A stretch of DNA of 63,111 nt from assembly GCA_033178465.1 (NCBI GenBank), contig GCA_033178465.1_4726.1, one strand, 5' to 3'. Positions 20,307 to 59,870 of the stretch are shown here, piece after piece. The first letter of the stretch is position 1, and each line of letters opens with the position of its first letter. A program made the position numbers and the translations under genes. The notes under the pieces were generated by a model. It worked only from the letters and a program-made list of their open reading frames with translations, did not search any database and was not told where the DNA came from. The DNA is from a phage.

Positions 20307-20933
20307 ATGAGCAAGAATAAAGACCAACGTTCTGCAAAAATGGACGAGGAGATTACTGCGGTAGAAACCACCGTTGCAGATGCTCCGGTTAGTGATGTTG
20401 TAACACAGCCGGAAACGGTCGCTGTTGAGAAGAAGGAAACCGTTGTTGAAGAAAAGCCTGCGAAACCAGCGGTGAAAGAATCGCCTGCTGTTTCTATCGT
20501 GGCTTCTCGTGCCGCAACCCTGGTTGCTCCGTTCCAGAAATATGCGGAAGAAATGGGTCCGACCATGCCGCAAACGCCGCAGTCGTTGATCCGCCATCAG
20601 CGGTCTTTAATGTCTGCTTTCCGTGCGTTACTGGATGTGGATAATCCTGAGGTTTTCCGCACCGCCTTTGCTGATATTCTGAAGATCTGGAAAGATAACA
20701 GCGAAGGGGCATTTAACGCAAACCGTTATCTGTATCGCGGTATCGATAACATGCCGCTGGACTACCATACCCGCATGGCTTTCCTGACAGTACTGCGTCT
20801 GATGGATGCGATCTATGATGAAAGCCGTCGCCAAGTTGAAATCCGCGCTATCGACCTTAATATCGCAATTCCTGAAATTGCTTACTTCGATACGCGTAAC
20901 TATCTGGCAGGTTACATGCGTCGCTTTGCATAA
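20307..20933 (+). CDS. hypothetical abundant protein (host-optimised codon usage), Lys/Glu/Val/Ala-rich N-terminus
   Basis: 208-aa ORF, AAAGGAAA RBS; codon choice dominated by CTG/CGT/GGT/GAA/AAA/ACC unlike neighbouring genes. Confidence 0.75.
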   Translation: MSKNKDQRSAKMDEEITAVETTVADAPVSDVVTQPETVAVEKKETVVEEKPAKPAVKESPAVSIVASRAATLVAPFQKYAEEMGPTMPQTPQSLIRHQRSLMSAFRALLDVDNPEVFRTAFADILKIWKDNSEGAFNANRYLYRGIDNMPLDYHTRMAFLTVLRLMDAIYDESRRQVEIRAIDLNIAIPEIAYFDTRNYLAGYMRRFA

Positions 20934-23386: not shown

Positions 23387-23400
23387 TTAATCAACGATAT

Positions 23401-30642: not shown

Positions 30643-31083
30643 ATGAATATTTCTGATTTCGCCATTCAGCTGAAAGACCTGGTACGTGATTTCCCAGCCG
30701 AACAACAGACCCGTGCATTAAGTATTGCCGCAGGTTATATCGCCGGTTACAGCATGCCGGTATTCGCTGAAAAAGAAGATCTGACTGCTGACAGCATCTT
30801 CGTTCGTGAACATCTCCCTAAAATCCGTGAAGGGTTGGATAAGCTGAACAAGGTACTGGTTATTGGGCTGGCTGATGCGTTAGACGTTGCCCGCTACTTC
30901 TGGTGCCTGCGTTACCGCATGGTGCATGAGCCAACCGCACCTGAAACCATGCTGTTATTAGCCTCCGCTGTTCGTGACCAAGAAACCGCAGGGCTGCCTG
31001 ACGTTATCGAAGGGGTTGATCCTAAGCTGGTTGCGCAACTCGCAACGGCTTTCGCTAACGCACTGCAAGGAGAAAACGCATGA
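30643..31083 (+). CDS. hypothetical protein, host-optimised codon usage
   Basis: 146-aa ORF, AAAGGAA RBS; ATGA overlap with downstream 931-aa gene. Confidence 0.7.
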   Translation: MNISDFAIQLKDLVRDFPAEQQTRALSIAAGYIAGYSMPVFAEKEDLTADSIFVREHLPKIREGLDKLNKVLVIGLADALDVARYFWCLRYRMVHEPTAPETMLLLASAVRDQETAGLPDVIEGVDPKLVAQLATAFANALQGENA

Positions 31084-36900: not shown

Positions 36901-37519
36901 TAACCAAGCCTTGGAGGCTGCGTTTCAAGTCTATAACAGGGCTGTTTATAACCGTGCCGTAATCGGACAGCATCTGTTGGGTGTTATGCCACGGTTTACG
37001 GGTGTATTCAGTAACTATCCGTGGACATTAGGCCTTGACCTTCAGGTGTCCAATCCTTCCGCGTTAAATGCGTTCTGTGAGAAGCTTTCGCGGTCTATCG
37101 AGCTCTATGGTGCAGGCACTGCCGACAGCATCACACAGGCGGTTGCTTTGTTAGATTCAACAGAACTCTGTTATGCGGTGGATCCGAACTATGAAGGCGA
37201 ATCTGGTAAATCATCGGCTTTAGCAACGCATATGTTCGAATATCGACGTCTGGCAAAAGAAGCATTGGAACCCCATAGCGACTTTACCACCGAAGAACAA
37301 CGGCGGGGATGGTACGCGACGTTCATGGACAGTTCACCATCATGGGAACCGGATAATACTCTCCCAGTGGTAACGGAAGATGTTGATCCTTCGCTGATAT
37401 GGGCATTCGCGTCTTTGTTCTGTGCTGCGCTGAATGCGTTTATCGCATTGAAGTACGGTACCGATCTCAAGGTGTACGGTTGGTTCAGTGAACAGCAGAA
37501 CAGCAATAACGTAAGATAA
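33935..37519 (+). CDS. large hypothetical protein (1194 aa), possible virion/ejected protein
   Basis: Long ORF preceded by perfect 12-bp-stem hairpin and followed by conserved palindromic hairpin; no motif recognised. Confidence 0.7.
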   Translation: MNKYLAAGLSSADNGLLVLESLTDGINSTPRTTTLNGAFLDDLLALKETLHREQQVSRQQLSMLSLSMPEALDGKPLALWTELPSTTGFREACQIVDKAITLMESKLKQEGNGQLVTLLRHELERLDNHKEDGETFNTMMVDLSQQLGELHQTLQGVIEHPDVIEDMGYAIQRHADELAAVWSPALPIIAHSQALATLVQADTNILQQMLDLQAADADIPMSVENQDISALERFMDGDGCLLPIAPTDCPTEWSLKDLLNYIGTGVFATRILRDVCQQYGDVAERVKQVIAKAEGLAQDSTLDGIAQLNLLTQMQCVRIKYQRMFAQSVRAALLFAQTVGQIILDVKDTAVAAKSDDFWDKTQAEVEAADGYTRIELVQEGFFGPILKLFDKKGPNPLLDNKASNSWKYLENIQQQIAQTYANKSWVERNIHDKLVVSKRVARALSFDDGKVRMPMIVLKEAISAMRSVQKLVEAPAQARHAKLKQLEEKALRRVKAGENQYQVAKDTLAEAKKIKPLSTIPESSYPKWLGYKYSTFFNMLMLEEPVIDELPKLNVDDVVETGKFLTNDAAKALKEFTTADVFCGTGCDTELWNYDAFGDDDELYDQFYLHSKFNETSATDVYYNYLEAFVNVCSATVEWLARQTSLKALTMEGYGIYTAESAWETLRRTMEYTVNILKRLVDWLVKSWRNGSAKAAIQQAEANNSQLTRAKDALLTEGTKKRLASLHTVGIQTIAKYAEAGTIWSGAFKGVTDNLGNVSALISSEVKELSNGRELDQDKLAKIREGLAHAFEKGNFNKVLLGHDGITIDNLASEIHDYREELKDQFKESTNESIDVDKLIRYNDGCRKFLQGPITDARNKVSGHELDNLLTMLNSMIRQQASSPENKGLGALKNEIVNARDLAKAAVDILGIAQWLEVRAKRYINALSTVVDKANSEAAAVSGTLKQEAFDLNEVVLSSTNYDVCSVAATSLAANRFRNSRDELRRHYNQALEAAFQVYNRAVYNRAVIGQHLLGVMPRFTGVFSNYPWTLGLDLQVSNPSALNAFCEKLSRSIELYGAGTADSITQAVALLDSTELCYAVDPNYEGESGKSSALATHMFEYRRLAKEALEPHSDFTTEEQRRGWYATFMDSSPSWEPDNTLPVVTEDVDPSLIWAFASLFCAALNAFIALKYGTDLKVYGWFSEQQNSNNVR

Positions 37520-37527: not shown

Positions 37528-37560
37528 TCCCTCCTCCTTCCCTGACGGGTTGGAGGAGGG
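37528..37560. terminator. conserved palindromic hairpin element (family A, inverted orientation) between convergent genes; TATG on both flanks
   Basis: CCCTCCTCCTTCCCTGACGGGTTGGAGGAGGG; followed by TTATGC; complement of upstream flank reads AATATGC. Confidence 0.6.
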
Positions 37561-42964: not shown

Positions 42965-43867
42965 ATGGCAATTGATTTTAAAGAATTCATTCGCGGTTTG
43001 AAGCCGCTTTTTAAACGCACCGGTGTTGCTGACGCACTTGAATCGATCCGTGACGAAATCAACAACACCGCGATTCCTTACTACGAGACATCCGCTTCGC
43101 TTCTCCAAAAAGGGGAAAGCGCCTTATGGAAACTTGCTGATAAGGATCTGCACCAGCGTTTAACCCGCGTTCGCTCTGGAAGCTGGGTAGAAAACGTTCA
43201 CTTAGCGCTACGCAATGCTGTTGATCTAATTCCAGAAATTGTTAAACGTGTTAACAAAAACCTGGAAATCGATGTTGCTGCTGACGGCCTAAGTTTCAAA
43301 GAAGCCGCTCTGGTACGTCTTGTTGAGTCCTTGGGCTTCTACGTTAGCTATGCTCGTACGCTGCTTCGTGCAACGGTCATCTGCGAAAGCATGCCGGGTG
43401 GTGATAAAGCACTTGGTGAGTTCTTCACCAAAAACGAGATTGCTTACCTGACCGCCAATATGTACGGTTTCGCCATTGCCACCGAGGTGTTGTGTGGACA
43501 GAAACAACAGATCCTTGCTGGGTTGGATAAAATCCCGGATGTTGTGGTTTCTGATGAAGACGGTGTTGGTAATGGCTTATACAACGCGGGTAATACCGAC
43601 CCGATGCGTATGGGCTCATGGTCCGACACTCAAATGACCAACACGCTTATTTACCGTTATCGCATCTGGCGCAGCGAACGTGAAGAAGCGTCGTTACAAG
43701 CAGCCAAAGAAGAAGCCCAAGCGTTGGAGTACTGGATTTTGTCACTGAAGCAAAAACAGCAGAATGCAGGCAACGATCCAAAAATCCAGCAGCAGATCGA
43801 ATATCACGAAGAGCGACTGAAGAAACTTCGTTATGATATTAAACGAAAAGAAGAGGCGGCTGTATGA
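42965..43867 (+). CDS. hypothetical protein
   Basis: 300-aa ORF; ATGA overlap with next gene. Confidence 0.75.
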   Translation: MAIDFKEFIRGLKPLFKRTGVADALESIRDEINNTAIPYYETSASLLQKGESALWKLADKDLHQRLTRVRSGSWVENVHLALRNAVDLIPEIVKRVNKNLEIDVAADGLSFKEAALVRLVESLGFYVSYARTLLRATVICESMPGGDKALGEFFTKNEIAYLTANMYGFAIATEVLCGQKQQILAGLDKIPDVVVSDEDGVGNGLYNAGNTDPMRMGSWSDTQMTNTLIYRYRIWRSEREEASLQAAKEEAQALEYWILSLKQKQQNAGNDPKIQQQIEYHEERLKKLRYDIKRKEEAAV

Positions 43868-44394
43868 ATGCACTTCGTGACGTCCCTTTAACGTTATACG
43901 GTACCGGGTTCTTTGGATTTCCGGTTAACGGTGTAAAACGTCAGGAGAACTACGATCGTGACGTTGTTAGTCTGTATCAGCGTCTGGTTGACGGTACTCC
44001 TCTCGATGACTGGAAATACGAGCGTCAGGTTCTTTCCACCCTTTATCGTTTGATGTACCCCATTACCGACTGGGTGGAAATGAACAGCCATAACCCAAAT
44101 CTGAACTTCACCAGTCTGGAGTTTATCCGTGATACACTACGATTCATTCACACGGGTAGACGAGACACGAACGTTCAGATTGCGGGTCAATTGATTGATA
44201 ACTGGTCAGATCGTCAGTCGTTAAGTTCACACCAACGTCTGGAAAGCAGCGGTAAACTTATGAGTTATATCACGTTGTCAGACGAAGAGATGGTGCGTAC
44301 TTGGCTCCATTGGGACAATGGCATCCAGGACATCATATGTACTTTGAATGCGGTGTTTGGGCAACCTATGGCACCGGGTTTTAAGGGCTTTTAA
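43864..44394 (+). CDS. hypothetical protein
   Basis: 176-aa ORF; followed by hairpins 44383-44433. Confidence 0.7.
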   Translation: MNALRDVPLTLYGTGFFGFPVNGVKRQENYDRDVVSLYQRLVDGTPLDDWKYERQVLSTLYRLMYPITDWVEMNSHNPNLNFTSLEFIRDTLRFIHTGRRDTNVQIAGQLIDNWSDRQSLSSHQRLESSGKLMSYITLSDEEMVRTWLHWDNGIQDIICTLNAVFGQPMAPGFKGF

Positions 44395-44458
44395 GTGAGC
44401 TGACGGTTCACTTAAGCCACATTAGCTAATGTGCAATTTATTGTAAAGGAAACAAATT

Positions 44459-45781
44459 ATGCCTTCTATTTTTGATCGTCTTGTCGCAAATCCATCTAAC
44501 GCACAGCTGGTTCAACTGGCTGCTGAGATCGATCCGGATGCAGCGGCAACCGTTGAAGCAGAACCGGCAGCTGATGCTGCAGCAGCGGATGAAACCGTTG
44601 TGGCTGAACTGACCGAACGTGCTGAAATCGCTGAAGATACCGCAGCTGAAACCGAACTGGCTATCGAAGTTCGTGGTGATATCGAGCAGGTTGATGCTGT
44701 TGTTATCGAAATTGCAAAAGACGACGAAACCGCAGAAGCCATGGACGAAGCCATGGATGAACTGACGGAAACCGTTGTTGCAACCGAAAGCTACCTGAAA
44801 GACGGTGGTATGTCTGCACAAACCGCTCAGGAACACATGCGTAACCTGAAACGCCTGTGTGGTACTATCGGTTTCAAACTGCCGGAAACCATGCCGTCCT
44901 TCGAAAGCTTCGGTGGTTCCGCTTCCCGCTACGATGCAACCAACATGATCTTCCTGGAAGAACAAAAATGGTGGCAGAAACTGTGGGCAACCATCAAGAA
45001 CTTCCTGAAAACTTCCTGGGAAACCTTCGTGAAGTTCATGGATCGTATCTTCGACGGCGCGACCAAACTGAAAGCACGTGCTGCTAAACTGAAAGAAATG
45101 ATCGGCAAGCGTAAAGGCGTTGCTAAAAATACCAAAGTTAAACTGGGTAGCGGCGTTTCAGGCTACATCGGTGGCGACGATCTGGTTACCGGCGCGACCA
45201 AAATCGCTGACACCTTCGAGAAAGCAATGAAGGCTGCTGACGATCGCGCTGATAAATTCGTTGGCACCGTTGTTGCTAAATCTCACACCGAGTACGCTGA
45301 TAAACTGAACGCTCCGGCGATCGCTGACGTTGCTGGTCCGGCAGGTTGGGGTTTCAAAGCCAACGATGGTAAAGTAACCTGGGAACGCTCTGGCGAAGCA
45401 AAAGAAGTTGAAGCTACCGTCCTGTCCCTGAATCAGCTGGCTGCTGCGGTTAGCGGTGTTGAAGTACTGGCTGACAAACTGCTGGCGCTGAAAGGCAACA
45501 TCGGTAAGAAATCCCAGGGCTTCAAAGACGCTGTTAAATTCGGTGACGATATGGAAGCCGATCTGTCTAAGAAAGGCGAAGTTTCCGCTCAGGAAAAACA
45601 GCGTGTTCAAGCTGTACTGTCTGCACTGAAAGACGCACGTTCCTGCTACGTGAACCCGCAGACTGGTCTGATGAAATACGGTGTTCAGGCAGGTAACGCT
45701 GTCCTGGATGGCGTTGCTAAAATGCTGAAAGAGTACGGCGGCCAGGCGGCTGAGAAACCGGCTGACGCAGCACAGCAGTAA
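44459..45781 (+). CDS. putative abundant head-internal/virion protein, member of paralogue family; acidic Ala/Glu-rich N-terminal region
   Basis: 440-aa ORF; strongly host-optimised codons (CTG, CGT, GGT, AAA, GAA, ACC, TTC); N-terminal motif MPSIFDRLV shared with neighbours (SLFD-type); AAGGAAAC RBS. Confidence 0.7.
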   Translation: MPSIFDRLVANPSNAQLVQLAAEIDPDAAATVEAEPAADAAAADETVVAELTERAEIAEDTAAETELAIEVRGDIEQVDAVVIEIAKDDETAEAMDEAMDELTETVVATESYLKDGGMSAQTAQEHMRNLKRLCGTIGFKLPETMPSFESFGGSASRYDATNMIFLEEQKWWQKLWATIKNFLKTSWETFVKFMDRIFDGATKLKARAAKLKEMIGKRKGVAKNTKVKLGSGVSGYIGGDDLVTGATKIADTFEKAMKAADDRADKFVGTVVAKSHTEYADKLNAPAIADVAGPAGWGFKANDGKVTWERSGEAKEVEATVLSLNQLAAAVSGVEVLADKLLALKGNIGKKSQGFKDAVKFGDDMEADLSKKGEVSAQEKQRVQAVLSALKDARSCYVNPQTGLMKYGVQAGNAVLDGVAKMLKEYGGQAAEKPADAAQQ

Positions 45782-45803
45782 TCAGTTAATAAACTGACAT
45801 ATT

Positions 45804-45835
45804 CCCTCTCCCTTCCCTTACGGGTTGGGAGAGGG
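45804..45835 (+). terminator. conserved palindromic hairpin element (family A) followed by TTCTATGCC
   Basis: CCCTCTCCCTTCCCTTACGGGTTGGGAGAGGG immediately after stop of 44459-45781. Confidence 0.6.
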
Positions 45836-45883
45836 TTCTATGCCGCTCAGGTTTATCTTTTGAATCATTACTGGAGACAACAC

Positions 45884-47200
45884 ATGGTACACATACCGCT
45901 ATTTGCGACCCAAGGCGATATCAGCCTTGAGGCGTTTGAAAAAGATCCTATTGTTGCTGAGGCGCTTGCTGTGGAGCCTACAGCCGATGTCATCGATGCT
46001 GATGGCGTTGAATTACGTTTGGCGACAATCGACGAACATGAAGATGCACTTGATCGTGCTTTCCCTGCTGTTGCCGCATTACGGGAAATCAGTTTTGATG
46101 TTGCTCCGACTATCGAATCGGCTAACTACAGTGACGTTGCATTAGTTCGTAATGTGCAAGAATCCGCATCGATTGCTCTGGGTCTGCCCTCCGAAGCATT
46201 GCTGACGCCAACCGATCGTGTTGAGGTTGGAGAAGCTTTGGTTGTTGAAGGGTTTAAGGACACCGTTGTAAAAGCCATGAAAAAGATCTGGGATATCATT
46301 GTTGATATTGCCCTGACTCTGGCAGCAGCCTTTGAGAAGCTTACCCGTCTTGTTTACGACGAGACGCGCAATTTTCAGAAAGCTGTTGCAGACCTCGAAC
46401 AAATGCCTAAAGGTAAATACGAGGAAAATAAAGAAGTTGCATTTAAAGCGGAGTGGCGGACGCTTTTCCCTAACCGTAACAAAGTTGGTGGTGTAGACAC
46501 GCTGAAAAGCAACATCGATACCTTCAATCAGATGTTCCTTAAATCGGACGGTTATTCAGTTATTGATGGGTTAGGGTTAAACATCATCGACTTCCATTTG
46601 GATAAGGTTGAAAAACTTCCCGTTGATTATCTGACTTTCTTGAACGCTGTCAAATCGACACTGGAAAATCGCGGTTCTGTGGAAGGTACTGACGTTATCA
46701 CTCCAACGGTTTCCGGAAAACGTATCCGCTACGTCAACGGTGCAGTCTTCTTGAAAGAATTCGATGCGTCAAAAGACAATATCATCGATGCGGTTAAACG
46801 TTACCTCGACTTGGATATTGTCGTTGAAGATGTTGAATGGGATAGTGACCCGGAAACGTACGTCCTACCGACACCTGACGATTTGCGTAGCGTTCGACAA
46901 CTGACGTTCGCGAAAGATCTGTTGATGGTAACAAAACGCGGACGCGCTTTCTCTGAGATATTCTCTCGCAATAAAATTCGCACCATGGAGCGCATCCAGG
47001 AAATCACCATGAAACGCTTCAACGAGCAGAATTTTGACGCAAGCTACCAACCGTATGTCGAAATCTATCCTAAGCTCGTTAAGCGCGCGATTCTGCTTTG
47101 TGGTAAAGAGAACCGTATTGAAAACCAATTCGCTTACCAATATCTTCGTGCATTGACCTCATTTATCAACACTCTCGTTAAAGCTTATACCAAAGGTTAA
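45884..47200 (+). CDS. paralogue-family virion protein (putative head-internal/ejection protein)
   Basis: ATG at 45884 with GGAGAC RBS (track start 45860 is TTG); paralogous to 47210-48499 (e.g. VALVRNVQESASIALGL…VVEGFKD vs VALIRQIASTSAANLGM…VLEGFKE). Confidence 0.75.
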   Translation: MVHIPLFATQGDISLEAFEKDPIVAEALAVEPTADVIDADGVELRLATIDEHEDALDRAFPAVAALREISFDVAPTIESANYSDVALVRNVQESASIALGLPSEALLTPTDRVEVGEALVVEGFKDTVVKAMKKIWDIIVDIALTLAAAFEKLTRLVYDETRNFQKAVADLEQMPKGKYEENKEVAFKAEWRTLFPNRNKVGGVDTLKSNIDTFNQMFLKSDGYSVIDGLGLNIIDFHLDKVEKLPVDYLTFLNAVKSTLENRGSVEGTDVITPTVSGKRIRYVNGAVFLKEFDASKDNIIDAVKRYLDLDIVVEDVEWDSDPETYVLPTPDDLRSVRQLTFAKDLLMVTKRGRAFSEIFSRNKIRTMERIQEITMKRFNEQNFDASYQPYVEIYPKLVKRAILLCGKENRIENQFAYQYLRALTSFINTLVKAYTKG

Positions 47201-47209
47201 GGAACTAAC

Positions 47210-48499
47210 ATGGCCCGCATCTCTCTTTTTGATAACGTCGATAAAAACGCATTCGAACTCGCATTGCTCAGCGCCGAAGATCTTCTTGCGGCAATTCCAG
47301 CGGAGCAAAATGATCCCAACGCAGAAATCGAAGAGGACGAAGTTGAGTTGGTGATTCAACGTACCGACGAGACAATCGATGAATCCAGCGAGCTGGCTGA
47401 AATCGCGGTGCGTACCTCAGCAACGCTGGAAGATACCGCATACATGATCGCACCTACGATCCCTGAAGCACGTGCGAGCGACGTCGCCCTTATCCGTCAG
47501 ATTGCTTCGACGTCAGCAGCTAACCTGGGGATGTCCGATGAAGACATGTTCCAAGCCGACGATCGTTTGGTGGAAGGGCAGGCTATCGTACTGGAAGGCT
47601 TTAAAGAACGCGCAGCACAAGCGTTATACGCAGTTTGGGTAATCATTGCGAATATCGCTGAGCAACTGTTCAAACTGTTCCAGATGTTGTTCAAGAACCT
47701 GGTCGTTGCATACAACAAAATTGTCAAGATCGCAACCGCTGTGAATAAAGGTGAGCGCCATATCAAACAGTTGGATAAGCCCACTGGAAATATGGTCAAT
47801 ATGTTCCCTAATGCTAAATCAGCGAATGCCGTGTTTGCAAGCAAGCATATCGAACAACTCGCTGCAAGCGCAAGCGGGACGGATTCACTGTTTAAGCATG
47901 TGGCTGATATCAATAAAAAGGTCGCAGACCTCACTGACCTCACACTGCTTCCGTCTATCTTAGACAAATACCTGCTGGCGATCAAATCAGCTCTGAATAA
48001 AGTTGTTTTTCCAGAGAGCGGTGGGAAGGAATTCGTTATTCAAGGTCTCGACGCTGTTGAAAACGAACGTGATGCGATTAAAGCCTATACGTTGGTGAAA
48101 AATATTCGGGTTGAGGCCGAGATGACGGTGGCCGGTGAGATAGAGAACGCAAACATTTTCAAAGACGATAACGAACTGAAAGGTGCATTGACTTCCTATC
48201 TTAACGTGTTCCGTACGATAGACTCCTCTTATTTCCACATGGTTGAAGCTTTGGCCGGTTCTGTGGAGCGTACCGCTAAACTCAACGGCATGAAAATCAA
48301 AACGAAGTGGGGTGATATGCTCGACAAGCTGCCTGAAGCCGATCGTGAAACCATCCGTCCTTATGTAAGTGCGGTTTCTGAAATGGCGCGCTTAAGTACT
48401 GTATTGTCAACCAAGATTCTTCGCGCTTCGATACGCCAATATGCGGATGCTGTATTTGCTGCAGCGAAATACTTCGACGCTGTAACCGAAAAAGCATAA
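47210..48499 (+). CDS. paralogue-family virion protein (putative head-internal/ejection protein)
   Basis: 429-aa ORF; N-terminus MARISLFDNV; acidic propeptide-like segment; paralogous to 45884-47200. Confidence 0.75.
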   Translation: MARISLFDNVDKNAFELALLSAEDLLAAIPAEQNDPNAEIEEDEVELVIQRTDETIDESSELAEIAVRTSATLEDTAYMIAPTIPEARASDVALIRQIASTSAANLGMSDEDMFQADDRLVEGQAIVLEGFKERAAQALYAVWVIIANIAEQLFKLFQMLFKNLVVAYNKIVKIATAVNKGERHIKQLDKPTGNMVNMFPNAKSANAVFASKHIEQLAASASGTDSLFKHVADINKKVADLTDLTLLPSILDKYLLAIKSALNKVVFPESGGKEFVIQGLDAVENERDAIKAYTLVKNIRVEAEMTVAGEIENANIFKDDNELKGALTSYLNVFRTIDSSYFHMVEALAGSVERTAKLNGMKIKTKWGDMLDKLPEADRETIRPYVSAVSEMARLSTVLSTKILRASIRQYADAVFAAAKYFDAVTEKA

Positions 48500-48508
48500 C
48501 CACTATAT

Positions 48509-48541
48509 CCCTTCCTCCTTCCCTTACGGGTTGGAGGAAGG
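48509..48541 (+). terminator. conserved palindromic hairpin element (family A) followed by TTTATGGCG
   Basis: CCCTTCCTCCTTCCCTTACGGGTTGGAGGAAGG after stop of 47210-48499. Confidence 0.6.
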
Positions 48542-48647
48542 TTTATGGCGTTGGTATCCGGTTATCTTTTGACTTCTGAATCAACGGTTCAGAAGGTAAA
48601 TGGCGGACATGATCACCCGCCAAGATTTTCCTACGTAGGAGTCCCAA

Positions 48648-49949
48648 ATGGAAAACGTGTTACAACAACCCATGACATCGTTGTTTCAAGGGATTGATGA
48701 TGAACCTGTAGAATCGTTCGGTATCGCTGGCAATATTCTCGATGCCAGTAATATTGAGAATCAGTTTCACTCAATCGACGAAACAAACACGGTGATGAAA
48801 GAAGGTGAACAACACCTTCAAACATTAAATAAACTCAGGTTGGATATCGTCCCAAACATGGCTGAAGTTGAAGAACGCGATATTAACACCATCAAACATA
48901 TCGCAACAACCGCAGCTGCCGGAATGGGAATGGACCCAAACCAAATCATCGAGGGTCTGGAAGAGGAAACTTCCAGCGGGATGAGCTTGAACATGGAAAG
49001 TTTTGACAAGACCGCAAAAGAAGCAACCCGAGCGTTATGGCTTTACATGAACGAGTTATACCGCTACGCGATCGATATCTGTAATCGTTGTTATCGTCGA
49101 TTCGTTCGTCAGGTGAAGCCGTTATTAAAGAAAGCGGCTGCGTTGAAAACTATTTCCGAATACGATGTTAATGAAGATAACGCATTCTGGGAGAACTTTC
49201 CTTACAACTGGCGATATCTTCATCCGAAAGGTGGTGCCGTAAGCAGTATTGCTGATTTACGACAAACCGCAGAAAACATCGTGACGAACACAGGAATCCT
49301 CGCAGCATGGCATCGTCAACTCGATCCGTTATTAATGCAGCTACTAAAAGCACCATCAGCGGATAACAAAGAAGGTATCGCTGCAGAAAACGAAGCCTGT
49401 TGGGAGAATATTCTCGAGGTCATCAACGAGGCGTTATGCGAGAAGCCGTTAACACCTGCCGGAACAGACGATCTGGTCGTTGACGTTCCTGTTGGTGCTT
49501 CCTACCTTAAATTACACAACATCGAAGACGCATCAGGAACGCAATTCAGCGTTGTGTGGGAAGCCGTATCTTTCCAATCAGCAAAAGACGGATTCCGTTT
49601 CTTACCGTTAAACGATGTTATCGACGGAACCAACGCGATCATCAACGCATTAAGTACGTTATGGTCTACGCTACGACAGTTGGAATTTAAACGTTGTCTT
49701 GAAGCAAGCCTTGCCGACCAGGACGAATGGATTCAACCTTACGAGCGTTTGCTGCAACAGATGGACAACGACGATACCACCGCATCCGCTATCGTTCAAC
49801 GTGTGGGTATCGCGCGTAACGTCGTCGGCTTCCAGGCGGTTGCTTTTGCCCGATTCCTGTTAACTGTCTGCGACGTCATCGACGGTCTTAATGATTATCT
49901 TGACGCGCATCTCGAACTTGAGGAAACCAGCAATGCTGCAGACCTATGA
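48648..49949 (+). CDS. paralogue-family virion protein (putative)
   Basis: 433-aa ORF, AGGAG RBS; N-terminal MTSLFQGIDDE motif and segment IKHIATTAAAGMGMD resembling other family members. Confidence 0.7.
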   Translation: MENVLQQPMTSLFQGIDDEPVESFGIAGNILDASNIENQFHSIDETNTVMKEGEQHLQTLNKLRLDIVPNMAEVEERDINTIKHIATTAAAGMGMDPNQIIEGLEEETSSGMSLNMESFDKTAKEATRALWLYMNELYRYAIDICNRCYRRFVRQVKPLLKKAAALKTISEYDVNEDNAFWENFPYNWRYLHPKGGAVSSIADLRQTAENIVTNTGILAAWHRQLDPLLMQLLKAPSADNKEGIAAENEACWENILEVINEALCEKPLTPAGTDDLVVDVPVGASYLKLHNIEDASGTQFSVVWEAVSFQSAKDGFRFLPLNDVIDGTNAIINALSTLWSTLRQLEFKRCLEASLADQDEWIQPYERLLQQMDNDDTTASAIVQRVGIARNVVGFQAVAFARFLLTVCDVIDGLNDYLDAHLELEETSNAADL

Positions 49950-51039
49950 CGGACAGATTCAAGCGTTAAGCTTGTTAAAAACATTACCTGTGCCAGAGAC
50001 AGCAACGCAACGACAAATTCACCAGCTTATTTATCAGCAAGCAGGCGGTATTCCGGCAACCGGTTATACCACAGAAAGTGCTGATCTCCTCACGATGGAA
50101 TCGTACAATCAGCTTGCGATGAAAATCATCAAAGCCATCATCGATGCGATCTGGACAACGTTGCGGAACATCACTGCGTTTATCGCCCGGTTTATCGATC
50201 GTAGTCGCGCACTACAGCTCGAACTCAGCAACATCCGCCGTCACTACACAAAAGCCGTTGGTCGTAAACCCATCGCGCAAAGCTTCGAAGCTTCGTCAAC
50301 GCTGGCACCGCACCTACGGTATGGGAACAGTTTTGGATTCGACTTCACAACTGGGAATACGTTATACAAACAGAATTTGGCAATCGCTGAATATCTCTTG
50401 TCTTCGTCGTTCCGTGATGATTTCAAGCAGTTCGCTAATACGTTAGATAGAGCGCTCGACATTATCTTAAAACAGACGGATACCGCATTAATCGATGTGA
50501 TTAATCGCGATGCGTATACGTTATTGCATAAAGTCTACAGTACGCTGAACGAATCGAGACTTGTCAACGTAACGTTACTGGGTAACCGTACGCTACGACT
50601 CGATCAGGTTACCACCGCAGGTTCTGGTTCAATTCAACAATCCCTCGCTATTCAATCCGCACGGTTTGAAGTCCAGGATGTACCGTCAGTTGAACGGGAT
50701 ATGGTGGTTACAATGCCAACATTAGAACAAGTTGGTGTGCTACTCGAGTCGGTAAATACGGGTGTTGATTTACTGGTTAGTTACCATCGTAAAAAGTACG
50801 CCAACGAGTTACTCGAAATCGCAGGGAATCTACAAGCAAAACTTAACGACGTTTATCGTCAACAAGGTCAGTTGTCAGTTACTACTGCTTCTGATGATGC
50901 TATGGTAGCCCTTTCTCGATACCTTACAGCGTATACCGCGTGGATCAAGGTGCCGCTTGTGGGCTATGCCGAGTTCTTTACGAATTCAACAGCGGCTATG
51001 CTTGATGTCTCTCGCGAGGCGCTGAAATATTACTTTTAA
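49933..51039 (+). CDS. hypothetical protein, possible divergent family member
   Basis: ATG at 49933 with AGGAAA RBS, overlapping end of previous gene; ~368 aa. Confidence 0.65.
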   Translation: MLQTYDGQIQALSLLKTLPVPETATQRQIHQLIYQQAGGIPATGYTTESADLLTMESYNQLAMKIIKAIIDAIWTTLRNITAFIARFIDRSRALQLELSNIRRHYTKAVGRKPIAQSFEASSTLAPHLRYGNSFGFDFTTGNTLYKQNLAIAEYLLSSSFRDDFKQFANTLDRALDIILKQTDTALIDVINRDAYTLLHKVYSTLNESRLVNVTLLGNRTLRLDQVTTAGSGSIQQSLAIQSARFEVQDVPSVERDMVVTMPTLEQVGVLLESVNTGVDLLVSYHRKKYANELLEIAGNLQAKLNDVYRQQGQLSVTTASDDAMVALSRYLTAYTAWIKVPLVGYAEFFTNSTAAMLDVSREALKYYF

Positions 51040-51054: not shown

Positions 51055-54000
51055 ATGAAAAAATCGTTAGCTGATCTGATGCGTAAGTCGCATCTTAACC
51101 TGGAAAGCGGCGATACACCTATCGAAGTCAAAGCAACGCTTTCTACTGATAAAGAAGAGCAAGTGATCGCATTACCTACAGCGGCACGGCCAGACAGCAT
51201 CGAAGCGACGATCGAATCAGATACGCTCGAGGAAGGGGCTACCGTTGATGACGCTGTTCGTGTGATTCGTAGCACGGGTGAAAACGGCGAGGATGTCGTA
51301 CGTGCTGTTATTGTTACCCGTCCTATTGATGGTAGTTTGCGAATCCGTTTCACACCGAGCAACGGTGGTGTGACCATGGAAGACGGTAACGATGTTCAAC
51401 CGTTCGTTCTGATCGCGGTACCGACCGCACCTGGCGAAGAGCCGAAGAACCCGTATCCGGCAAACGCACCGACCGAGACACCGGCACCGAAAGTGACCAA
51501 TGACCCGACCGTTAACGCTGACCGTGACAACCTGAAGAACAAGATTCAGGATGCGGCTAACGCCATCGATCCAACCAATCCGGCACAAATCGAACAGGCT
51601 GCGCAACCGGCAGAAACCACCGAAGGTGTTAAAGGCAATGTCGTCGAACCGGAAAAAGCAGAACCTGTTGCTGAAACAGCAGCTGAGGTAGCCGAGGCGA
51701 CGCCAGAAACCAAAACGACGGAAGAACCCATCAAAGTCACCGTGATTAAACGTGTCGTAGAGAAAGTAGAAAAGGTTGAAGATACCGTCGCTAACGAACA
51801 ACCTGTTGTCGACGCTAATGACGGTAATACCGGTGAGCAGAAAGCTGAAGCAGTTGCTCAGGAAACAGAACTGCAAGGCGATGTTGAGGTCGATAGCGCC
51901 GACGAAACGTCCACCGAGGATAGCACCACCGAACCCGCGTCCGAAGAACCTACCAACACCGACGCTGATGCTGATGCTACCGACACCACAACCACCGAAG
52001 GTGACGACGATGAAGACGACGAAAACGAAGAAGATGAAGATCTGAAACAAGAGTCGTTCGAAATTCATCAAGAGCTGGAAGCCCGCGGCGTATTAGATGT
52101 TCCTGTTGTTGAACAGCGCGCATCTGTTATTCTCGGCGAAGGTGAAACAGATGTAACCGTCATTGAAACAGAACAACCGTACATTCCTGGCACCATGGTG
52201 GTACGTCGTCTTGATGGGGATAAGAGTGTTATTGTTCGCCGTACTCGTTACGCTGAACGCTTTAACGCTGATGGTCAGGGTGAAGCGATCGCCATTGTCG
52301 ACCCTACTCTGCAAGGCGAACTGAAAATGGAATTCCGTCCGGCTGAAGGTCCGATGGAAAGCTTCGAGATTCGTCCTGAAATCAAAGACGAATACATCAT
52401 GGAATCGTACAAACAGCTTGATGTCGCACTGAACAGCGATCTCAATCTGGAAGACGGGGAAAAGCAACCGGGTCGCTTTAAACAGATTCTGAAATCGGTT
52501 TACGAAGCGGTCGCGAAGTTCTTAAAAGCCCTCGTGGCGCGTTTGAAAAATCTCTTTGGTGTTAATAAGAAAAAAATCGAAGAGAAGGCCGACAAACTGA
52601 CCAAAGAACAACGCACAGCACCAGTGATGAAACTGCTTCCTCCGCCGAGCGATACCAAGAAGGTTGACGTTGAGTGGAATAAACTGGATACGCTGCTCGC
52701 AAACGACTCGAAATCTGTCGATAAGATCGTAAACGCCGTCAAAGACAGTAAACGTATTGCGGACGCGTCGAAGAAATATTTCGATGAGTTAAAGAACAGC
52801 AAGGAAGGCGAGCAAGTTCAGCATCCAGCTGAAATGAAAGCAGCTCTTGGAATGGCGGGCGTGAAAGCGTTCGGATATTCTATCGACGACGCGTTAAACG
52901 GCATTCGTGAGTTCCGTGACGAACTTAGCGCCATGAAACAGCAGGATGATGCTGTGCCGTCCAACGTTAGCGTTGAAATGCTGATCGATGCATCAACAAA
53001 ACTGTTTGACGAAGACCTCCTGAAAGCAGCTACTCAACTTCAGGAGACGGCTGAGCAGTTACTCCGCGATCTGGACAAAGTGGAAAACGAATCAGGCGCA
53101 CGCTACGTCACGCAGCGCACACGTACCCTGATGAACTTTGCAACAACTGCATGCACCGTTTACGGATTCGCCGCAAAAGAACTGGGCGATGTTACCGTTC
53201 GTATACTCACCGCTGTCGCAGCGGCTGATAACGGTGATCTCAAACAGGAAGAGTATCAGGATGTTGCCGGTGAAAACGATCCGGTTGTCACCATCGAGAC
53301 ACTGGAAGGCGATGCTGGTACTCGTGTTGTTGCTGAGGCGGAAATCGTTGATGATCCTGCTGTGGTGGAATTCGTTGAGCGTGCTGAAGAAGCGCAGCGA
53401 AATCTGGCTATCGGTCGCCACGCGGTGAACGCGGTGGAAGGTATTCTGGTAGCGGCACGTGAGATCGGTCCTGATAACTTCCAGGGTAACGTCGAAGCTA
53501 CCGAAATTGCGATGGAAGGATTCATGGATACCGTTAAGAGCGCGGTCAACCGTATCGGTAACTGGATTGAAACCAACCACCGTTACTATACCGCCGCTAC
53601 GGCTCCATGGGATAAGCTGTTCGCCGAAACACAGCAAGCGTTGGCCAAAGCGCGTCGCGGTAACCCAGCAGCAGAACGGATTATTCTGAAACGTTTCATC
53701 CGTCATCTTACCATCGGTGGTGAACCTGTCACCGATGTGAAGAAGCTCATCGCTGCGTTGGGTGAAATCAAAATGCTTGGTAACATGACGCGTGAATTAA
53801 TCGTTGCTATCAATCGTGAGCTCAGCGACGTGCGGAAGAGCAACCAGTCCGAAACATCCGCTGGATCGGTTGTTGGTCTGAAGCGTATTCCTATTCAGAA
53901 ATGGGATAAGCTCATGGTCGCTACCGTACAACCGTGGAAAGACAGCGATCGTAAAGGTGTTGGGTCCAAAGCGTATCTTGGTGAAACGCACATCGTGAAG

Positions 54001-54414
54001 GTGAGCGCGACCTATGCGACAACGCGCAACAACCCGAACGAGGAAGCAGCGAAACTGATGCAGTGGATCTACACCGGTATCAATCGCCAGTTTACGGTTT
54101 CTGACGACCTCACCAGTGAGGAATTACCGGTAGCTACTATCAGCGAACTGGAGGCAGTGCTGCGTGCGGCTCGTGAAGCACATGAAGCTTGGCTTATTGC
54201 TGACAACGCCATGCAGACCCTGCGTTCAATCGATAAATTCCTGGATAGCGAACTCAACGTTGAGAACGATGTTAATAATGTCGTTAACTACGGTATTGTT
54301 CTCGGCCTGGAAGATTGGCTGTTCCATCCGGCATTGACGTTATGGCAACAGTTCAATAAACCGATGCAAGCGGTGCTTTTCCTCATCAAAGCCCATTGCG
54401 GTGCCTACAAGTAA
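51055..54414 (+). CDS. large virion protein (1119 aa) with extended acidic low-complexity region
   Basis: N-terminus MKKSLADLM (family-like SLxD motif); region ~51700-52060 encodes Glu/Asp/Thr-rich stretch (…TEGDDDEDDENEEDEDLKQE…); AAGAGGAA RBS. Confidence 0.75.
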   Translation: MKKSLADLMRKSHLNLESGDTPIEVKATLSTDKEEQVIALPTAARPDSIEATIESDTLEEGATVDDAVRVIRSTGENGEDVVRAVIVTRPIDGSLRIRFTPSNGGVTMEDGNDVQPFVLIAVPTAPGEEPKNPYPANAPTETPAPKVTNDPTVNADRDNLKNKIQDAANAIDPTNPAQIEQAAQPAETTEGVKGNVVEPEKAEPVAETAAEVAEATPETKTTEEPIKVTVIKRVVEKVEKVEDTVANEQPVVDANDGNTGEQKAEAVAQETELQGDVEVDSADETSTEDSTTEPASEEPTNTDADADATDTTTTEGDDDEDDENEEDEDLKQESFEIHQELEARGVLDVPVVEQRASVILGEGETDVTVIETEQPYIPGTMVVRRLDGDKSVIVRRTRYAERFNADGQGEAIAIVDPTLQGELKMEFRPAEGPMESFEIRPEIKDEYIMESYKQLDVALNSDLNLEDGEKQPGRFKQILKSVYEAVAKFLKALVARLKNLFGVNKKKIEEKADKLTKEQRTAPVMKLLPPPSDTKKVDVEWNKLDTLLANDSKSVDKIVNAVKDSKRIADASKKYFDELKNSKEGEQVQHPAEMKAALGMAGVKAFGYSIDDALNGIREFRDELSAMKQQDDAVPSNVSVEMLIDASTKLFDEDLLKAATQLQETAEQLLRDLDKVENESGARYVTQRTRTLMNFATTACTVYGFAAKELGDVTVRILTAVAAADNGDLKQEEYQDVAGENDPVVTIETLEGDAGTRVVAEAEIVDDPAVVEFVERAEEAQRNLAIGRHAVNAVEGILVAAREIGPDNFQGNVEATEIAMEGFMDTVKSAVNRIGNWIETNHRYYTAATAPWDKLFAETQQALAKARRGNPAAERIILKRFIRHLTIGGEPVTDVKKLIAALGEIKMLGNMTRELIVAINRELSDVRKSNQSETSAGSVVGLKRIPIQKWDKLMVATVQPWKDSDRKGVGSKAYLGETHIVKVSATYATTRNNPNEEAAKLMQWIYTGINRQFTVSDDLTSEELPVATISELEAVLRAAREAHEAWLIADNAMQTLRSIDKFLDSELNVENDVNNVVNYGIVLGLEDWLFHPALTLWQQFNKPMQAVLFLIKAHCGAYK

Positions 54415-58351: not shown

Positions 58352-59719
58352 ATGGATTACAAACAGACGCCGTTAGGACGGTATATCGGTACGTTTGCGC
58401 AGGAAGCAGTTGCTGTTGCGTATAAAGTCACCGCGGAATTAATCACGCCGTCAATGACGGTGTCTGTTCCTTTAGTGACTCAAGTCCACACGTATCGAGA
58501 CTATGAACGTAACGCAGGGGATGAACTTTATATTTCTGTAAAGTTCCCACCAGGCAGTTACGGAAAATACATTCTACCGTACCAACAACAACTTAAAATG
58601 CGCATCATCGTGCAGGCGTACAGCCTGATGCGCGGACAACGCCAAACCGTAGACGATGCCGCACAAGCTTACGTCTACCGAGCGGTTTGTTTAACAACCG
58701 TAGACAGTCGTATGTCTGCTACCGACGAACGTACCGCAACCGATTCTTCGAAGAAAGACTATGAACAAATGGTCGATCTTCAATTTCAACTGTTCGATCC
58801 TGTTCTTGAAAGCTTCATGCAATCAGAAACCGGTGAGAACTATACTGGTTCGAAAGTGTTGGATGTGTTGCGACTTGAATTCAGCAAGATACTTTCTGCG
58901 GTTGAAGCTGACACCGGATTCAAAATGCAAGGCGTGGATATTGTTGCACCGAATAACGACAATCCGTTCAAGTTGCTTATTCTTCCGCACGGTACCAACG
59001 CAATGGATCTCGTAGATAAAATACAGAACCAGGTCGGTATCTATTCAGCGGATGTCGGTTGTTATTATCAATCACCGTATCTGTATATTTATCCTCTCTA
59101 CGACGAAACCCGTTTCTCTGACGGTCGACGCACGGCTATCTTTTACAACTATCCTGCCGATATGTTTCCAGGTATGGACAAAACCTGGATCAATCGTGAT
59201 AAATACGTGGAAATTGCGTGTACGAGAGGGGCGTCGGTAAGCGACATCAATAACGCGGCTTCGTTGTTAGGTAATGCGGGCGGGCGTTTTGTTTCGGCAA
59301 GTCAGATGAGTCAGGGAATGACATTATCAAAAGGGGGTGATACGATAATCAGTCGTACCGTAAACGTTAGCGAGTACGTAACGGAAGAACGTAGCGATAA
59401 CGTGAAGGTGGCGAAAGGGATGGGGCGCGTAACCGATAACCGATGGCGTGAATTAAGTAATACTGCTGGATTACGCGGTAGAACAATGCAGTTGGTGTGG
59501 GAATACGCAAACATGGATATGTTGTATCCCGGCATGCCTGCTAAAGTTGTGTGGATGCAGGATAACAATCTCTGCGAAGCATACGGGGTTATCATGCGTA
59601 CCGATTGCGCCGTTACGATGGCAGGTTCTTCTGTACGTGAACCACAGTGGACATGTCATGGTACGGTCACGTTATGGATCGCACCAGAAAAAGACAATAC
59701 CGTTCGTCCAACCGTTTAA
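58352..59719 (+). CDS. hypothetical protein (455 aa)
   Basis: Starts 3 nt after previous stop; followed by conserved palindromic hairpin 59724-59756. Confidence 0.75.
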   Translation: MDYKQTPLGRYIGTFAQEAVAVAYKVTAELITPSMTVSVPLVTQVHTYRDYERNAGDELYISVKFPPGSYGKYILPYQQQLKMRIIVQAYSLMRGQRQTVDDAAQAYVYRAVCLTTVDSRMSATDERTATDSSKKDYEQMVDLQFQLFDPVLESFMQSETGENYTGSKVLDVLRLEFSKILSAVEADTGFKMQGVDIVAPNNDNPFKLLILPHGTNAMDLVDKIQNQVGIYSADVGCYYQSPYLYIYPLYDETRFSDGRRTAIFYNYPADMFPGMDKTWINRDKYVEIACTRGASVSDINNAASLLGNAGGRFVSASQMSQGMTLSKGGDTIISRTVNVSEYVTEERSDNVKVAKGMGRVTDNRWRELSNTAGLRGRTMQLVWEYANMDMLYPGMPAKVVWMQDNNLCEAYGVIMRTDCAVTMAGSSVREPQWTCHGTVTLWIAPEKDNTVRPTV

Positions 59720-59723
59720 TATT

Positions 59724-59756: not shown

Positions 59757-59783
59757 TTCTATGCTGTCTTAAGCGCATCACTC

Positions 59784-59837: not shown

Positions 59838-59870
59838 TGTAAATTTCTCTTAATAACCGAGGATACAAAC

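Follow-up and report, generated by a model that had tools for sequence, protein, structure and literature searches.

The gene at 44459-45781 of the window (the whole 63,111-nucleotide stretch of phage DNA analysed here) is written almost throughout in the codons that E. coli prefers in its most highly expressed genes, and this is very probably the outcome of translational selection on the dominant phiKZ-type internal head protein of a Goslar-like chimallivirus. The ORF is complete from ATG to TAA with 440 codons. CAI weights were taken from 28 ribosomal-protein, tufA and fusA genes of E. coli K-12 (4731 codons), and on this scale the gene has a CAI of 0.784, with an Nc of 30.9, ranking first among the 51 ORFs of the window, whose median CAI is ~0.38. 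The same weights give 0.833 for tufA, 0.788 for fusA and 0.22–0.37 for the cryptic gsp genes, which places the gene at the level of EF-G and EF-Tu. A preliminary description of this DNA had called the gene strongly host-optimised and had listed its favoured codons; both points are correct, and the ranking of every ORF in the window against host ribosomal-protein genes shows a clear difference from the surrounding genes. The contrast that it drew with the neighbours is equally borne out, as the four ORFs that follow have CAI values between 0.295 and 0.437 (Table 1).

Leucine is encoded by CTG in 30 of 31 cases, threonine by ACC in 22 of 26, phenylalanine by TTC in 13 of 14, isoleucine by ATC in 14 of 16 and tyrosine by TAC in all 7, and the 440 codons include no AGA, AGG, CGA, CGG, ATA, GGA, GGG, CTA or TTA. 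Synonymous usage differs from that of the remaining window with a χ2 of 281 (df 41, p = 1e-37). The preferred codons (CTG, CCG and CAG; GTT, GCT, CGT, GGT and TCT; AAA and GAA; TTC, ATC, TAC and ACC) match those of the highly expressed genes of the host, amino acid by amino acid. These data support the description of the gene as translationally selected and adapted to host codons, with a bias that is independent of base composition (see below).

Table 1. Coordinates of the gene, its flanking elements and related or codon-biased ORFs in the window.
Feature	Position	Strand	Evidence
CDS, Goslar gp58 orthologue, 440 aa	44459..45781	+	CAI 0.784; Nc 30.9; PF12699 77.5 bits
Capsid decorator, Goslar gp77 homologue	20307..20933	+	CAI 0.570; z 5.0; rank 2/51
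Vertex-binding-complex protein, Goslar gp66 / phiKZ gp85 homologue	30643..31083	+	CAI 0.513; z 3.9; rank 4/51
gp57 homologue, remote PF12699-like paralogue, ordinary codons	45884..47200	+	CAI 0.434; Pfam 23.5 bits, E 3.8e-5, under cutoff; deep profile E 0.0019
gp56 homologue, gp57/gp55 paralogue, low copy in Goslar, ordinary codons	47210..48499	+	CAI 0.437; hhalign gp57 99.7%, gp55 97.8%
gp55 homologue, gp57/gp56 paralogue, low copy in Goslar, ordinary codons	48648..49949	+	CAI 0.358; hhalign 93-98% to gp57 and gp56
gp54 homologue, remote PF12699 paralogue, low copy in Goslar	49933..51039	+	CAI 0.295, the poorest of the array; deep profile E 1.3e-6; Pfam E 1e-4, under cutoff
gp53 homologue, 1119 aa, two PF12699-like repeats (476-717, 813-1053)	51055..54414	+	CAI 0.518; z 8.0; deep profile E 2.1e-6
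Codons 2-19 of the gp58 orthologue, AT3-rich, non-optimal	44462..44515	+	holds 6 of the 22 poor codons (w<0.3) in this gene; Fisher p 1.4e-4
AT-rich leader, Shine-Dalgarno AAGGAA at 44446-44451, 7 nt before ATG	44442..44458	+	sequence
Hairpin directly 3' of the upstream gene's stop codon (gp59 homologue)	44386..44418	+	-18.3 kcal/mol in the centroid structure; z -2.1
Strong conserved hairpin, 17 nt past the stop of the gp58 orthologue	45798..45842	+	CATATT-CCCTCTCCC-TT-CCC-TTAC-GGG-TT-GGGAGAGGG-TTCTATG

The encoded protein belongs to the phiKZ internal head or ‘inner body’ family, Pfam PF12699, whose profile it matches from position 6 to 385 of 387 with 77.5 bits (gathering cutoff 27; E 1.5e-21). 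Its PHROG matches, 5750 and 2497, are both ‘internal head protein’. The gene lies within a block syntenic with phiKZ gp86-gp97, in which the gene immediately upstream is PF25618 PhiKZ_gp91 (the gp59 homologue), and the annotation of Goslar gp061-063 notes their similarity to phiKZ ORF087-089. The protein is unusual in composition, with 16% Ala and an acidic N-terminal third: residues 1–115 are strongly acidic (pI 4.05, net charge -27) and the remainder is basic (pI 9.3). It contains 13 S/A/G-x-E motifs of the type cleaved by the phiKZ prohead protease, one of them at 108–110, a motif too short to be diagnostic for the removal of an N-terminal propeptide. A sequence search of the PDB with the protein returned no solved relatives.

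The genes that follow had been described as paralogous neighbours. The paralogy is real but very remote, and has left only a faint trace in the sequences. Searches of the protein with BLASTP and phmmer against the other 50 proteins of the window gave no matches, and hhalign comparison of four-sequence profiles (the window, Goslar and two more divergent genomes, L010 and L008) gave a probability of at most 5% with any neighbour, whereas the same comparison ties the gp57, gp56 and gp55 homologues together at 93–99.7%. It is a deep family profile of 151 sequences, together with sub-threshold Pfam matches, that alone ties the protein to the homologues of gp57, gp54 and gp53. A shared AlphaFold fold of the paralogues is stated in a recent preprint (10.64898/2026.04.21.720040). 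Within the array the gp56 homologue is unusually far from its Goslar counterpart (dN 0.145, dS 0.90). The case against a host origin of the gene, considered below, stands without the paralogy.

Over this block the window is 94.5% identical in nucleotides to the jumbo phage Goslar (Escherichia phage vB_EcoM_Goslar). The orthologue there is gp58 (HOV27_gp058, YP_009820743.1), likewise of 440 residues and separated by a dN of 0.004, and the protein is 98–99% identical to proteins on Goslar-like contigs. A 2026 preprint, whose authors consider LFQ copy numbers good to about ±50%, puts gp58 at ~2150 copies per virion, the top LFQ signal of any Goslar protein, with gp54-57 at ~50–70 copies each (gp57 at ~50) and gp53, the second most abundant member of the family, at ~330 (10.64898/2026.04.21.720040). 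In papers on Goslar, gp58 tagged as gp58-sfGFP was injected into the early infection vesicle and co-localised with the incoming DNA. By analogy with this near-identical protein, the product of the present gene would be of similar copy number, packaged in the capsid and injected. The published work on gp58 makes no mention of codon usage (0 occurrences of ‘codon’).

When the same weights are applied to the 242 genes of Goslar, the major head protein gene comes first (CAI 0.792) and gp58 second (0.778), followed by gp214, gp23 and chimallin, with the sheath and tube genes 10th and 11th. CAI rises with the measured number of copies per virion (Spearman 0.593, p 2.6e-11, n=105 proteins; Table S4 of 10.64898/2026.04.21.720040), and also with the stoichiometry modelled from cryoEM (rho 0.713, n=27). 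The relationship is repeated within the PF12699 family, where the abundant gp58 and gp53 have values of 0.778 and 0.508 vs 0.29–0.44 for the other members. There are exceptions, as gp158 is present at ~925 copies but has a CAI of 0.41, and gp208 at ~384 copies has one of 0.37; CAI thus accounts for part of the variance in copy number only.

Two further ORFs, at 20307-20933 and 30643-31083, had been credited with the same bias. Their CAI is significantly raised, but they stand at the top of a continuum and are not outliers like the gp58 orthologue, and the gp53 homologue, which ranks third of 51, had been overlooked. Several other ORFs in the window have z values of 3.4–4.3. The ORF at 20307-20933 matches PDB 11fg_A ‘Capsid Decorator gp77’ (E 3.6e-126) and that at 30643-31083 matches PDB 11fg_C ‘gp66’ (E 1.8e-92). 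In Goslar, gp77 has ~430 copies by LFQ, with 60 modelled, and gp66 has ~1000 by LFQ, with 110 modelled (10.64898/2026.04.21.720040). The order of the virion proteins from this region by Goslar LFQ is gp58 > gp66 > gp88 > gp77 > gp61 > gp53, so that the prediction that these three genes specify the most abundant products of the region was nearly right: they occupy ranks 1, 2 and 4, with gp88 third.

The bias is conserved. Orthologues with 87% and 47% amino-acid identity have CAI values of 0.717 and 0.786, respectively, and each is the top gene of its locus. Synonymous divergence is suppressed as well. Against Goslar the dS of the gene is 0.046, vs 0.146 and 0.213 for the flanking genes. Across the whole window dS against Goslar is uncorrelated with CAI (rho 0.003) because divergence from Goslar is mosaic; the single-pair value is therefore weak when taken alone, as a suggestive indication, and block-wise comparisons with L010 and L008 were used. 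Against L010 the gene has a dS of 0.44, the second-lowest in the block, where the median is ~1.0, and against L008 it has the lowest, 1.07, where the others range from 1.3 to saturated. In both comparisons its dN exceeds the block median, and it has the highest proportion (0.64) of conserved residues encoded by identical codons.

The start of the gene departs from this pattern. In codons 2–19 AT3 is 0.78 vs 0.50 elsewhere in the gene, and the MFE of the region from -25 to +45 is -3.1 kcal/mol, compared with -7.25 ± 1.75 in synonymous variants with the usage of the gene body, 0.1% of which are as open as the native sequence. These codons keep the ribosome-binding region unfolded. The leader contains a 9-mer, TGTAAAGGA, that recurs unchanged in the leader of gp041, the gene for the major head protein of Goslar. 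The pairing energy of the Shine–Dalgarno sequence, at -5.6 kcal/mol, is average (rank 33 of 51), so its strength is not the explanation, and not every expression signal of the gene is maximised.

The gene is flanked by two hairpins (Table 1). The one upstream may possibly mark a transcript boundary or a processing site. The one downstream lies in an 82-nt stretch (45779-45860) that folds with -33.5 kcal/mol (z -4.9), a value that none of 200 shuffled sequences attained. The window has 7 copies of its core motif vs 0.39 expected, which places it in a family of gene-end hairpins, the outer stems of which vary by compensatory changes. It is probably a terminator or 3' stabiliser separating the gene from the low-copy paralogues downstream. 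It was missed by the terminator scan because it has no T-run. No Rfam matches were found in the window at gathering thresholds. A scan for sigma-70 promoters around the gene showed no enrichment (5 found vs 7.1 expected); such a scan is in any case uninformative when a phage transcribes with RNA polymerases of its own.

A bias of this kind could in principle follow from mutational, strand or amino-acid composition effects, or from chance among ~50 ORFs, and the alanine-rich protein with its acidic N-terminal third is indeed unusual. The null expectation was obtained by drawing synonymous codons at random according to the window's pooled usage, with the amino-acid sequence fixed; it gives a CAI of 0.425 vs the 0.784 observed (z = 17.7). 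All four bases are represented at the third position of the preferred codons, which no single mutational bias would yield, and neighbours on the same strand lack the bias, so that this explanation is scarcely tenable. Equally improbable is the acquisition of the gene, or of its codon style, from the E. coli host or another coliphage, with the bias as a relic. It would account for a CAI in the range of host translation factors, and phage genomes are mosaic, with gene-to-gene divergence from Goslar varying strongly. However, the GC3 of the gene is 0.49, equal to that of its neighbours, and its third-position A/C/G/T frequencies are 0.228/0.273/0.212/0.287 vs 0.228/0.253/0.224/0.295 in the remaining window. 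The homologues (590 representative and 53 close) are all phage-specific members of PF12699, the close ones on contigs of ~220–247 kb, and family and homologue searches gave no matches to cellular families. Two homologues carry host-genome names (E. coli and Salmonella), yet both lie on phage-sized contigs. The gene also occupies its place in the block shared with phiKZ, and the bias is present at 47% identity, a distance over which synonymous states handed down from an ancestor would not have survived. A horizontally acquired host gene was rejected, as the relatives are phage-only and the composition is like that of the flanks. The earlier proposal of selection for very high expression over acquisition from the host is thus in agreement with composition, phage-only homologues, the bias of the orthologues and the Goslar proteomics.

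A further possibility is that the codons were selected mainly for something apart from translation speed or ribosome economy: for mRNA stability, for translational accuracy, for the folding during translation of a packaged protein prone to aggregate, or for avoidance of motifs targeted by host defence systems. Each of these would leave the same optimal-codon signature, and sequence analysis cannot separate them; the structured elements on either side of the gene suggest control at the RNA level, and its 5' end clearly responds to a constraint on RNA structure. However, the correlation between CAI and copy number across the genome fits a model based on expression level, and the genes with top CAI values (major head, gp23, gp214, chimallin, sheath and tube) are unrelated in fold and sequence, which gene-specific folding or motif avoidance would not predict. 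We consider this possibility unlikely.

Translational selection for abundant synthesis, the reading that we very much prefer, would operate as follows. Some 2,000 copies of the protein would be packed into each capsid and injected with the DNA, and its synthesis would therefore have to reach at least the level of the major capsid protein, so that the molar amount needed per cell would equal or exceed that of the latter. The phage mRNA would be translated by host ribosomes in the cytoplasm, and no tRNA genes were found in the window or in Goslar. With host ribosomes and no tRNAs of its own, selection would have driven nearly every codon of the gene to the E. coli optimum. Optimal codons may provide faster elongation, less sequestration of ribosomes and probably a stabler mRNA. 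The first ~19 codons would be excepted, as A/T-ending, non-optimal codons there would leave the ribosome-binding region unfolded and favour initiation. The hairpin past the stop would probably divide the transcript from those of the downstream low-copy paralogues.

Neither the phenomenon nor the protein is new, and the abundance, packaging and injection of the orthologue have been published. The codon signal independently backs the surprising LFQ claim that a structurally unresolved internal protein is made in quantities matching or exceeding those of the major capsid protein. It also offers a cheap means to pick out, in uncultured chimalliviruses, the bulk PF12699 paralogue and other high-copy virion proteins such as the homologues of gp23 and gp214. 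The wider proposal is that CAI is a read-out of virion stoichiometry in chimalliviruses from sequence only, and that the split of PF12699 into one bulk and several low-copy members is ancient; here we regard the arguments for and against as evenly balanced. If it is correct, the split has been kept down to 47% identity at least, and in a lineage whose GC content differs, with the bulk member made in capsid-protein amounts; its dominance would be evolutionarily old, and proteomics would not be needed to identify the dominant paralogue in uncultured jumbo phages. The function of these internal proteins is still called an unsolved question for this phage family.

The open start of the gene resembles the codon ‘ramp’, or low mRNA structure, that Kudla et al. 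in 2009 and Goodman et al. in 2013 reportedly described at the 5' ends of highly expressed E. coli genes: A/T-ending non-optimal codons fall within the first ~20 and the initiation region is unusually open. Unlike that work, the present case is an observation on one gene, and the likeness may be read from its sequence only as a candidate ramp. The closest system, Goslar gp58, shares the position between the homologues of gp59 (phiKZ gp91-like) and gp57, and has a CAI of 0.778 vs 0.784. The genome of the window is nevertheless distinct from that of Goslar, with a strongly diverged gp56 homologue, a longer gp64 homologue and a few genes that have no Goslar match. Like the phiKZ inner body (gp93, with paralogues gp92-97, gp162 and gp163), the protein encoded here belongs to PF12699, and its gene lies downstream of gp86-91 homologues in a tandem array of paralogues; the phiKZ proteins, as gp58 in Goslar, are high-copy, packaged and ejected. 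In phiKZ, however, several members are present at ~100–200 copies each vs one dominant member in the Goslar lineage, and an ordered inner body was not seen in Goslar capsids (10.64898/2026.04.21.720040).

Host-preferred codons in phage genes were the subject of earlier work on T7 and T4, and evidence of translational selection on phage genes for abundant structural proteins goes back to the 1980s. Systematic documentation of such selection dates from 2008, when structural high-copy phage genes were found to be enriched in host-preferred codons relative to non-structural genes, an effect separable from GC3 (Lucks, Nelson, Kudla, Plotkin 2008; PMC2266997). The gene described here shows exactly this pattern. 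It differs in that the calibration is made gene by gene against measured virion stoichiometry, and in that the extreme gene encodes an internal injected protein, and not a shell, sheath or tube protein, and differs sharply from its own paralogues.

The gp58 orthologue, a 440-codon ORF encoding an internal head protein, lies in a block (43800-48600) that is 94.5% identical in nucleotide sequence, over 93% of its length and in reverse orientation, to Escherichia phage vB_EcoM_Goslar, a nucleus-forming jumbo phage of 237 kb (genus Goslarvirus, NC_048170). CAI weights were derived from a set of 28 E. coli K-12 genes (ribosomal proteins, tufA and fusA; 4731 codons) and applied to 51 non-overlapping ORFs across the window. 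The gp58 orthologue has a CAI of 0.784 and an Nc of 30.9, against a window median CAI of about 0.38; E. coli yardsticks are tufA (0.833), fusA (0.788) and the cryptic gsp genes (0.22-0.37). Resampling synonymous codons from pooled window usage, with the amino acids fixed, gives a null CAI of 0.425 (z = 17.7), and a chi2 test sets the codons of this ORF apart from the remainder of the window (chi2 = 281, df 41, p = 1e-37). CTG encodes 30 of 31 leucines, and ACC (22/26), TTC (13/14), ATC (14/16), TAC (7/7) and GTT (25/34) are similarly counted, while AGA, AGG, CGA, CGG, ATA, GGA, GGG, CTA and TTA have zero counts in this ORF. The host-codon bias is real and highly significant, and the codons listed for this gene in the preliminary description agree with the counts. 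The same bias had been ascribed to the gp77 and gp66 homologues. Both are elevated, but they form, with the unlisted gp53 homologue, the upper end of a continuum, and only the gp58 orthologue is a discontinuous outlier.

Features of the window, with counterparts named after the Goslar annotation
Feature	Position	CAI; z; rank	Deep PF12699 profile	Fold
gp58 orthologue	44459-45781(+)	0.784; 17.7		
gp57 homologue	45884-47200		E 0.0019	
gp56 homologue	47210-48499		E 0.31	
gp55 homologue	48648-49949		E 0.9	
gp54 homologue	49933-51039		E 1.3e-6	
gp53 homologue	51055-54414	0.518; 8.0; 3rd	E 2.1e-6, two repeats	
gp65 homologue	31080-33875		E 0.0031, colinear over profile positions 130-393	
gp66 homologue	30643-31083	0.513; 3.9; 4th		
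gp77 homologue	20307-20933	0.570; 5.0; 2nd		
Hairpin after upstream gene	44386-44418			z -2.1
Very stable hairpin 3' of gp58 stop	45798-45842			within 82-nt 45779-45860, -33.5 kcal/mol, z -4.9
TTCCCTTACGGGTTGG core	9774-9789(-)			
TTCCCTTACGGGTTGG core	14889-14904(-)			
TTCCCTTACGGGTTGG core	37538-37553(+)			
TTCCCTTACGGGTTGG core	45813-45828(+)			
TTCCCTTACGGGTTGG core	48519-48534(+)			
TTCCCTTACGGGTTGG core	59734-59749(+)			
TTCCCTTACGGGTTGG core, weaker	9031-9046(+)			

Base composition and host DNA were both considered as sources of the bias. The GC3 of the ORF is 0.49, and its third-position A/C/G/T fractions (0.228/0.273/0.212/0.287) are essentially equal to those of the rest of the window (0.228/0.253/0.224/0.295); the favoured codons follow highly expressed host genes from one amino acid to the next, and between them they end in A, C, G and T. 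The protein belongs to Pfam PF12699, the phiKZ-like internal head proteins (77.5 bits, cutoff 27). All 53 close homologues and all 590 cluster representatives likewise fall in this phage family, and where close homologues lie on longer contigs these measure 220-247 kb. The matching third-position fractions and phage-only homologues make both sources very unlikely. A PDB sequence search found no solved structure matching the protein.

Two more loci with an orthologue were fetched for comparison. The orthologue in L010 (87% protein identity) has a CAI of 0.717, against 0.27-0.51 in eleven neighbours, and that in L008 (47% identity, locus GC 50.7%) has 0.786, with CTG at 25 of 26 leucines and neighbours at 0.35-0.62. 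Synonymous divergence is relatively low in each comparison: dS is 0.046 against Goslar (flanking genes 0.146 and 0.213), 0.44 against L010 (neighbour median near 1.0) and 1.07 against L008 (other genes 1.3 to saturated). At residues conserved with L008, 0.64 of the codons are identical, compared with 0.36-0.61 in other genes; dN is relatively high in the block comparisons with both loci. Taken over the window, CAI and dS against Goslar are uncorrelated (rho 0.003), a consequence of mosaic divergence, and it is therefore the block-wise dS comparisons that carry weight. ARAGORN found no tRNA gene either in the window or in the whole Goslar genome, which leaves the host's tRNAs as the sole supply for translation.

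The start of the gene departs from this pattern. Sliding CAI is 0.74-0.87 except in the first 40 codons (0.60); 6 of the 22 poor codons fall in codons 2-19 (Fisher p 1.4e-4), where AT3 is 0.78 against 0.50 elsewhere. The region -25 to +45 folds with only -3.1 kcal/mol, compared with -7.25 +/- 1.75 kcal/mol for synonymous variants with body usage, 0.1% of which are as open. Such a 5' signature is known from strongly expressed E. coli genes. With AAGGAA placed 7 nt ahead of the ATG, the Shine-Dalgarno is of average strength (rank 33/51). The leader 9-mer TGTAAAGGA (44442-44450) recurs unchanged just before the start of gp041, which encodes the major head protein in Goslar, and the two genes with the strongest codon adaptation thus have it in common; in the top 20 Goslar genes by CAI an AAAGGA leader is over-represented (5/20 vs 17/222, Fisher p 0.024). 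The N-terminal 115 residues of the protein are acidic (pI 4.05) and the remainder basic (pI 9.3), which would fit the presence of a phiKZ-like removable propeptide.

The Goslar genome was put together from annotated stretches and its 242 ORFs ranked by CAI (median 0.352). The major head protein gp041 (0.792) is first and gp058 (0.778) second, followed by gp214 (0.713), gp023 (0.709), chimallin (0.685) and gp077 (0.565); tail sheath and tail tube are 10th and 11th, and gp066 and gp053 13th and 14th. Goslar virions have been studied by cryoEM and label-free quantitative (LFQ) MS in a 2026 preprint, which reports about 2150 copies of gp58 per virion (LFQ fraction 0.129, top of all proteins), about 330 of gp53 and about 50-70 of gp54-57, and makes no mention of codon usage (10.64898/2026.04.21.720040). 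Across the 105 listed virion proteins, each matched to its Goslar ORF, CAI rises with LFQ copy fraction (Spearman 0.593, p 2.6e-11; Pearson 0.679, log scale), and with cryoEM-modelled copy number (rho 0.713, n=27). For the virion proteins whose genes lie in the window region, the LFQ order is gp58, gp66, gp88, gp77, gp61, gp53; the three ORFs predicted to be its most abundant products are therefore numbers 1, 2 and 4, with gp77 behind gp88. Two proteins break the relation, gp158 (Goslar 141553-142035; about 925 copies by LFQ, CAI 0.41) and gp208 (206889-207122; about 384 copies, CAI 0.37), through either LFQ overestimation of small proteins or expression by other means. A second Goslar paper describes gp58-sfGFP as packaged, injected and staying with the early infection vesicle beside the phage nucleus.

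The neighbours had been called paralogues of the gp58 orthologue. BLASTP and phmmer found no similarity between it and any other window protein, and shallow profile-profile comparison with the neighbours gave at most 5% probability; the gp57, gp56 and gp55 homologues are clear mutual paralogues (93-99.7%, profile-profile). A deep profile of 150 PF12699 representatives plus the gp58 orthologue, run against 51 window proteins, matches the gp54, gp53 and gp57 homologues, and sub-threshold Pfam matches exist for gp57 (E 3.8e-5) and gp54 (E 1e-4). By these profile matches the array from gp58 to gp53 forms a family, very remotely related, as the preprint also concluded from AlphaFold models (10.64898/2026.04.21.720040). 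In the gp65 homologue, the counterpart of phiKZ gp86 in the vertex-binding complex, the weak profile match hints at a remote kinship of this capsid-bound protein with the internal head protein family. The gp56 homologue has dN 0.145 and dS 0.90 against Goslar (neighbours' dS 0.16-0.21), which points to one low-copy PF12699-like paralogue having been replaced by recombination or having evolved rapidly.

The hairpin core TTCCCTTACGGGTTGG marks a conserved intergenic family with seven window matches at up to 3 mismatches (0.39 expected). In each copy an inner stem, CCC-TTAC-GGG, sits within a 9-bp outer one of polypyrimidine/polypurine type (CCCTCCTCC...GGAGGAGGG) that varies between copies by compensatory changes, and the flanks read ATAT...TATG. 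The good copies all lie just 3' of gene ends; they have no T-run, and no Rfam match was found. Goslar has 13 copies, only some of them annotated as terminators; two of the 13 stand at the genome ends (positions 3 and 237255).

Other differences from Goslar were observed. ORFs 23439-23921 and 60730-61632 have no nucleotide match there, and adjoining ORFs (22886-23386, 24462-24902, 59547-60644) are strongly diverged or only partly alignable. Three small ORFs in 22886-24385 resemble each other, and two in 59547-61632 have a common C-terminal domain; these stretches make up variable islands of the lineage. The gp64 homologue (33935-37519) has 1194 aa against 930 in Goslar and aligns in one piece over 544 codons only, a length polymorphism in a protein present at about 110 per virion. 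The tail-fibre gene (5230-9198, gp090 homologue) aligns over only a fraction of its length and with saturated dS, as does the small downstream ORF 9853-10509, a paralogue (47% identical) of 10612-11253; this is probably a host-range cassette differing between the two phages. PDB entries bear out the assignment of the gp77 and gp66 homologues; in the composite Goslar entry 36za the gp77-identical sequence (60 chains) is named 'baseplate spoke gp220' and the gp66-identical one (110 chains) 'gp032'. These chain counts fit gp77 and gp66, and the molecule names therefore appear shifted.

Five lines of evidence support translational selection for very high expression, rather than acquisition from the host, and with it the preliminary interpretation: base composition does not account for the bias, divergent orthologues retain it, synonymous change is held back, the 5' end is open, and the published copy number of the orthologue is high. 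The additions are modest: CAI in this lineage serves as a quantitative proxy for virion stoichiometry; it lends independent support to the surprising result that a structurally unresolved internal protein is as numerous as the capsid protein or more so; and the predominance of a single PF12699 paralogue goes far back in evolution. The protein has already been characterised in Goslar, and the phenomenon is that already known from Lucks et al. 2008 (PMC2266997), host-codon selection in phage head and tail genes.
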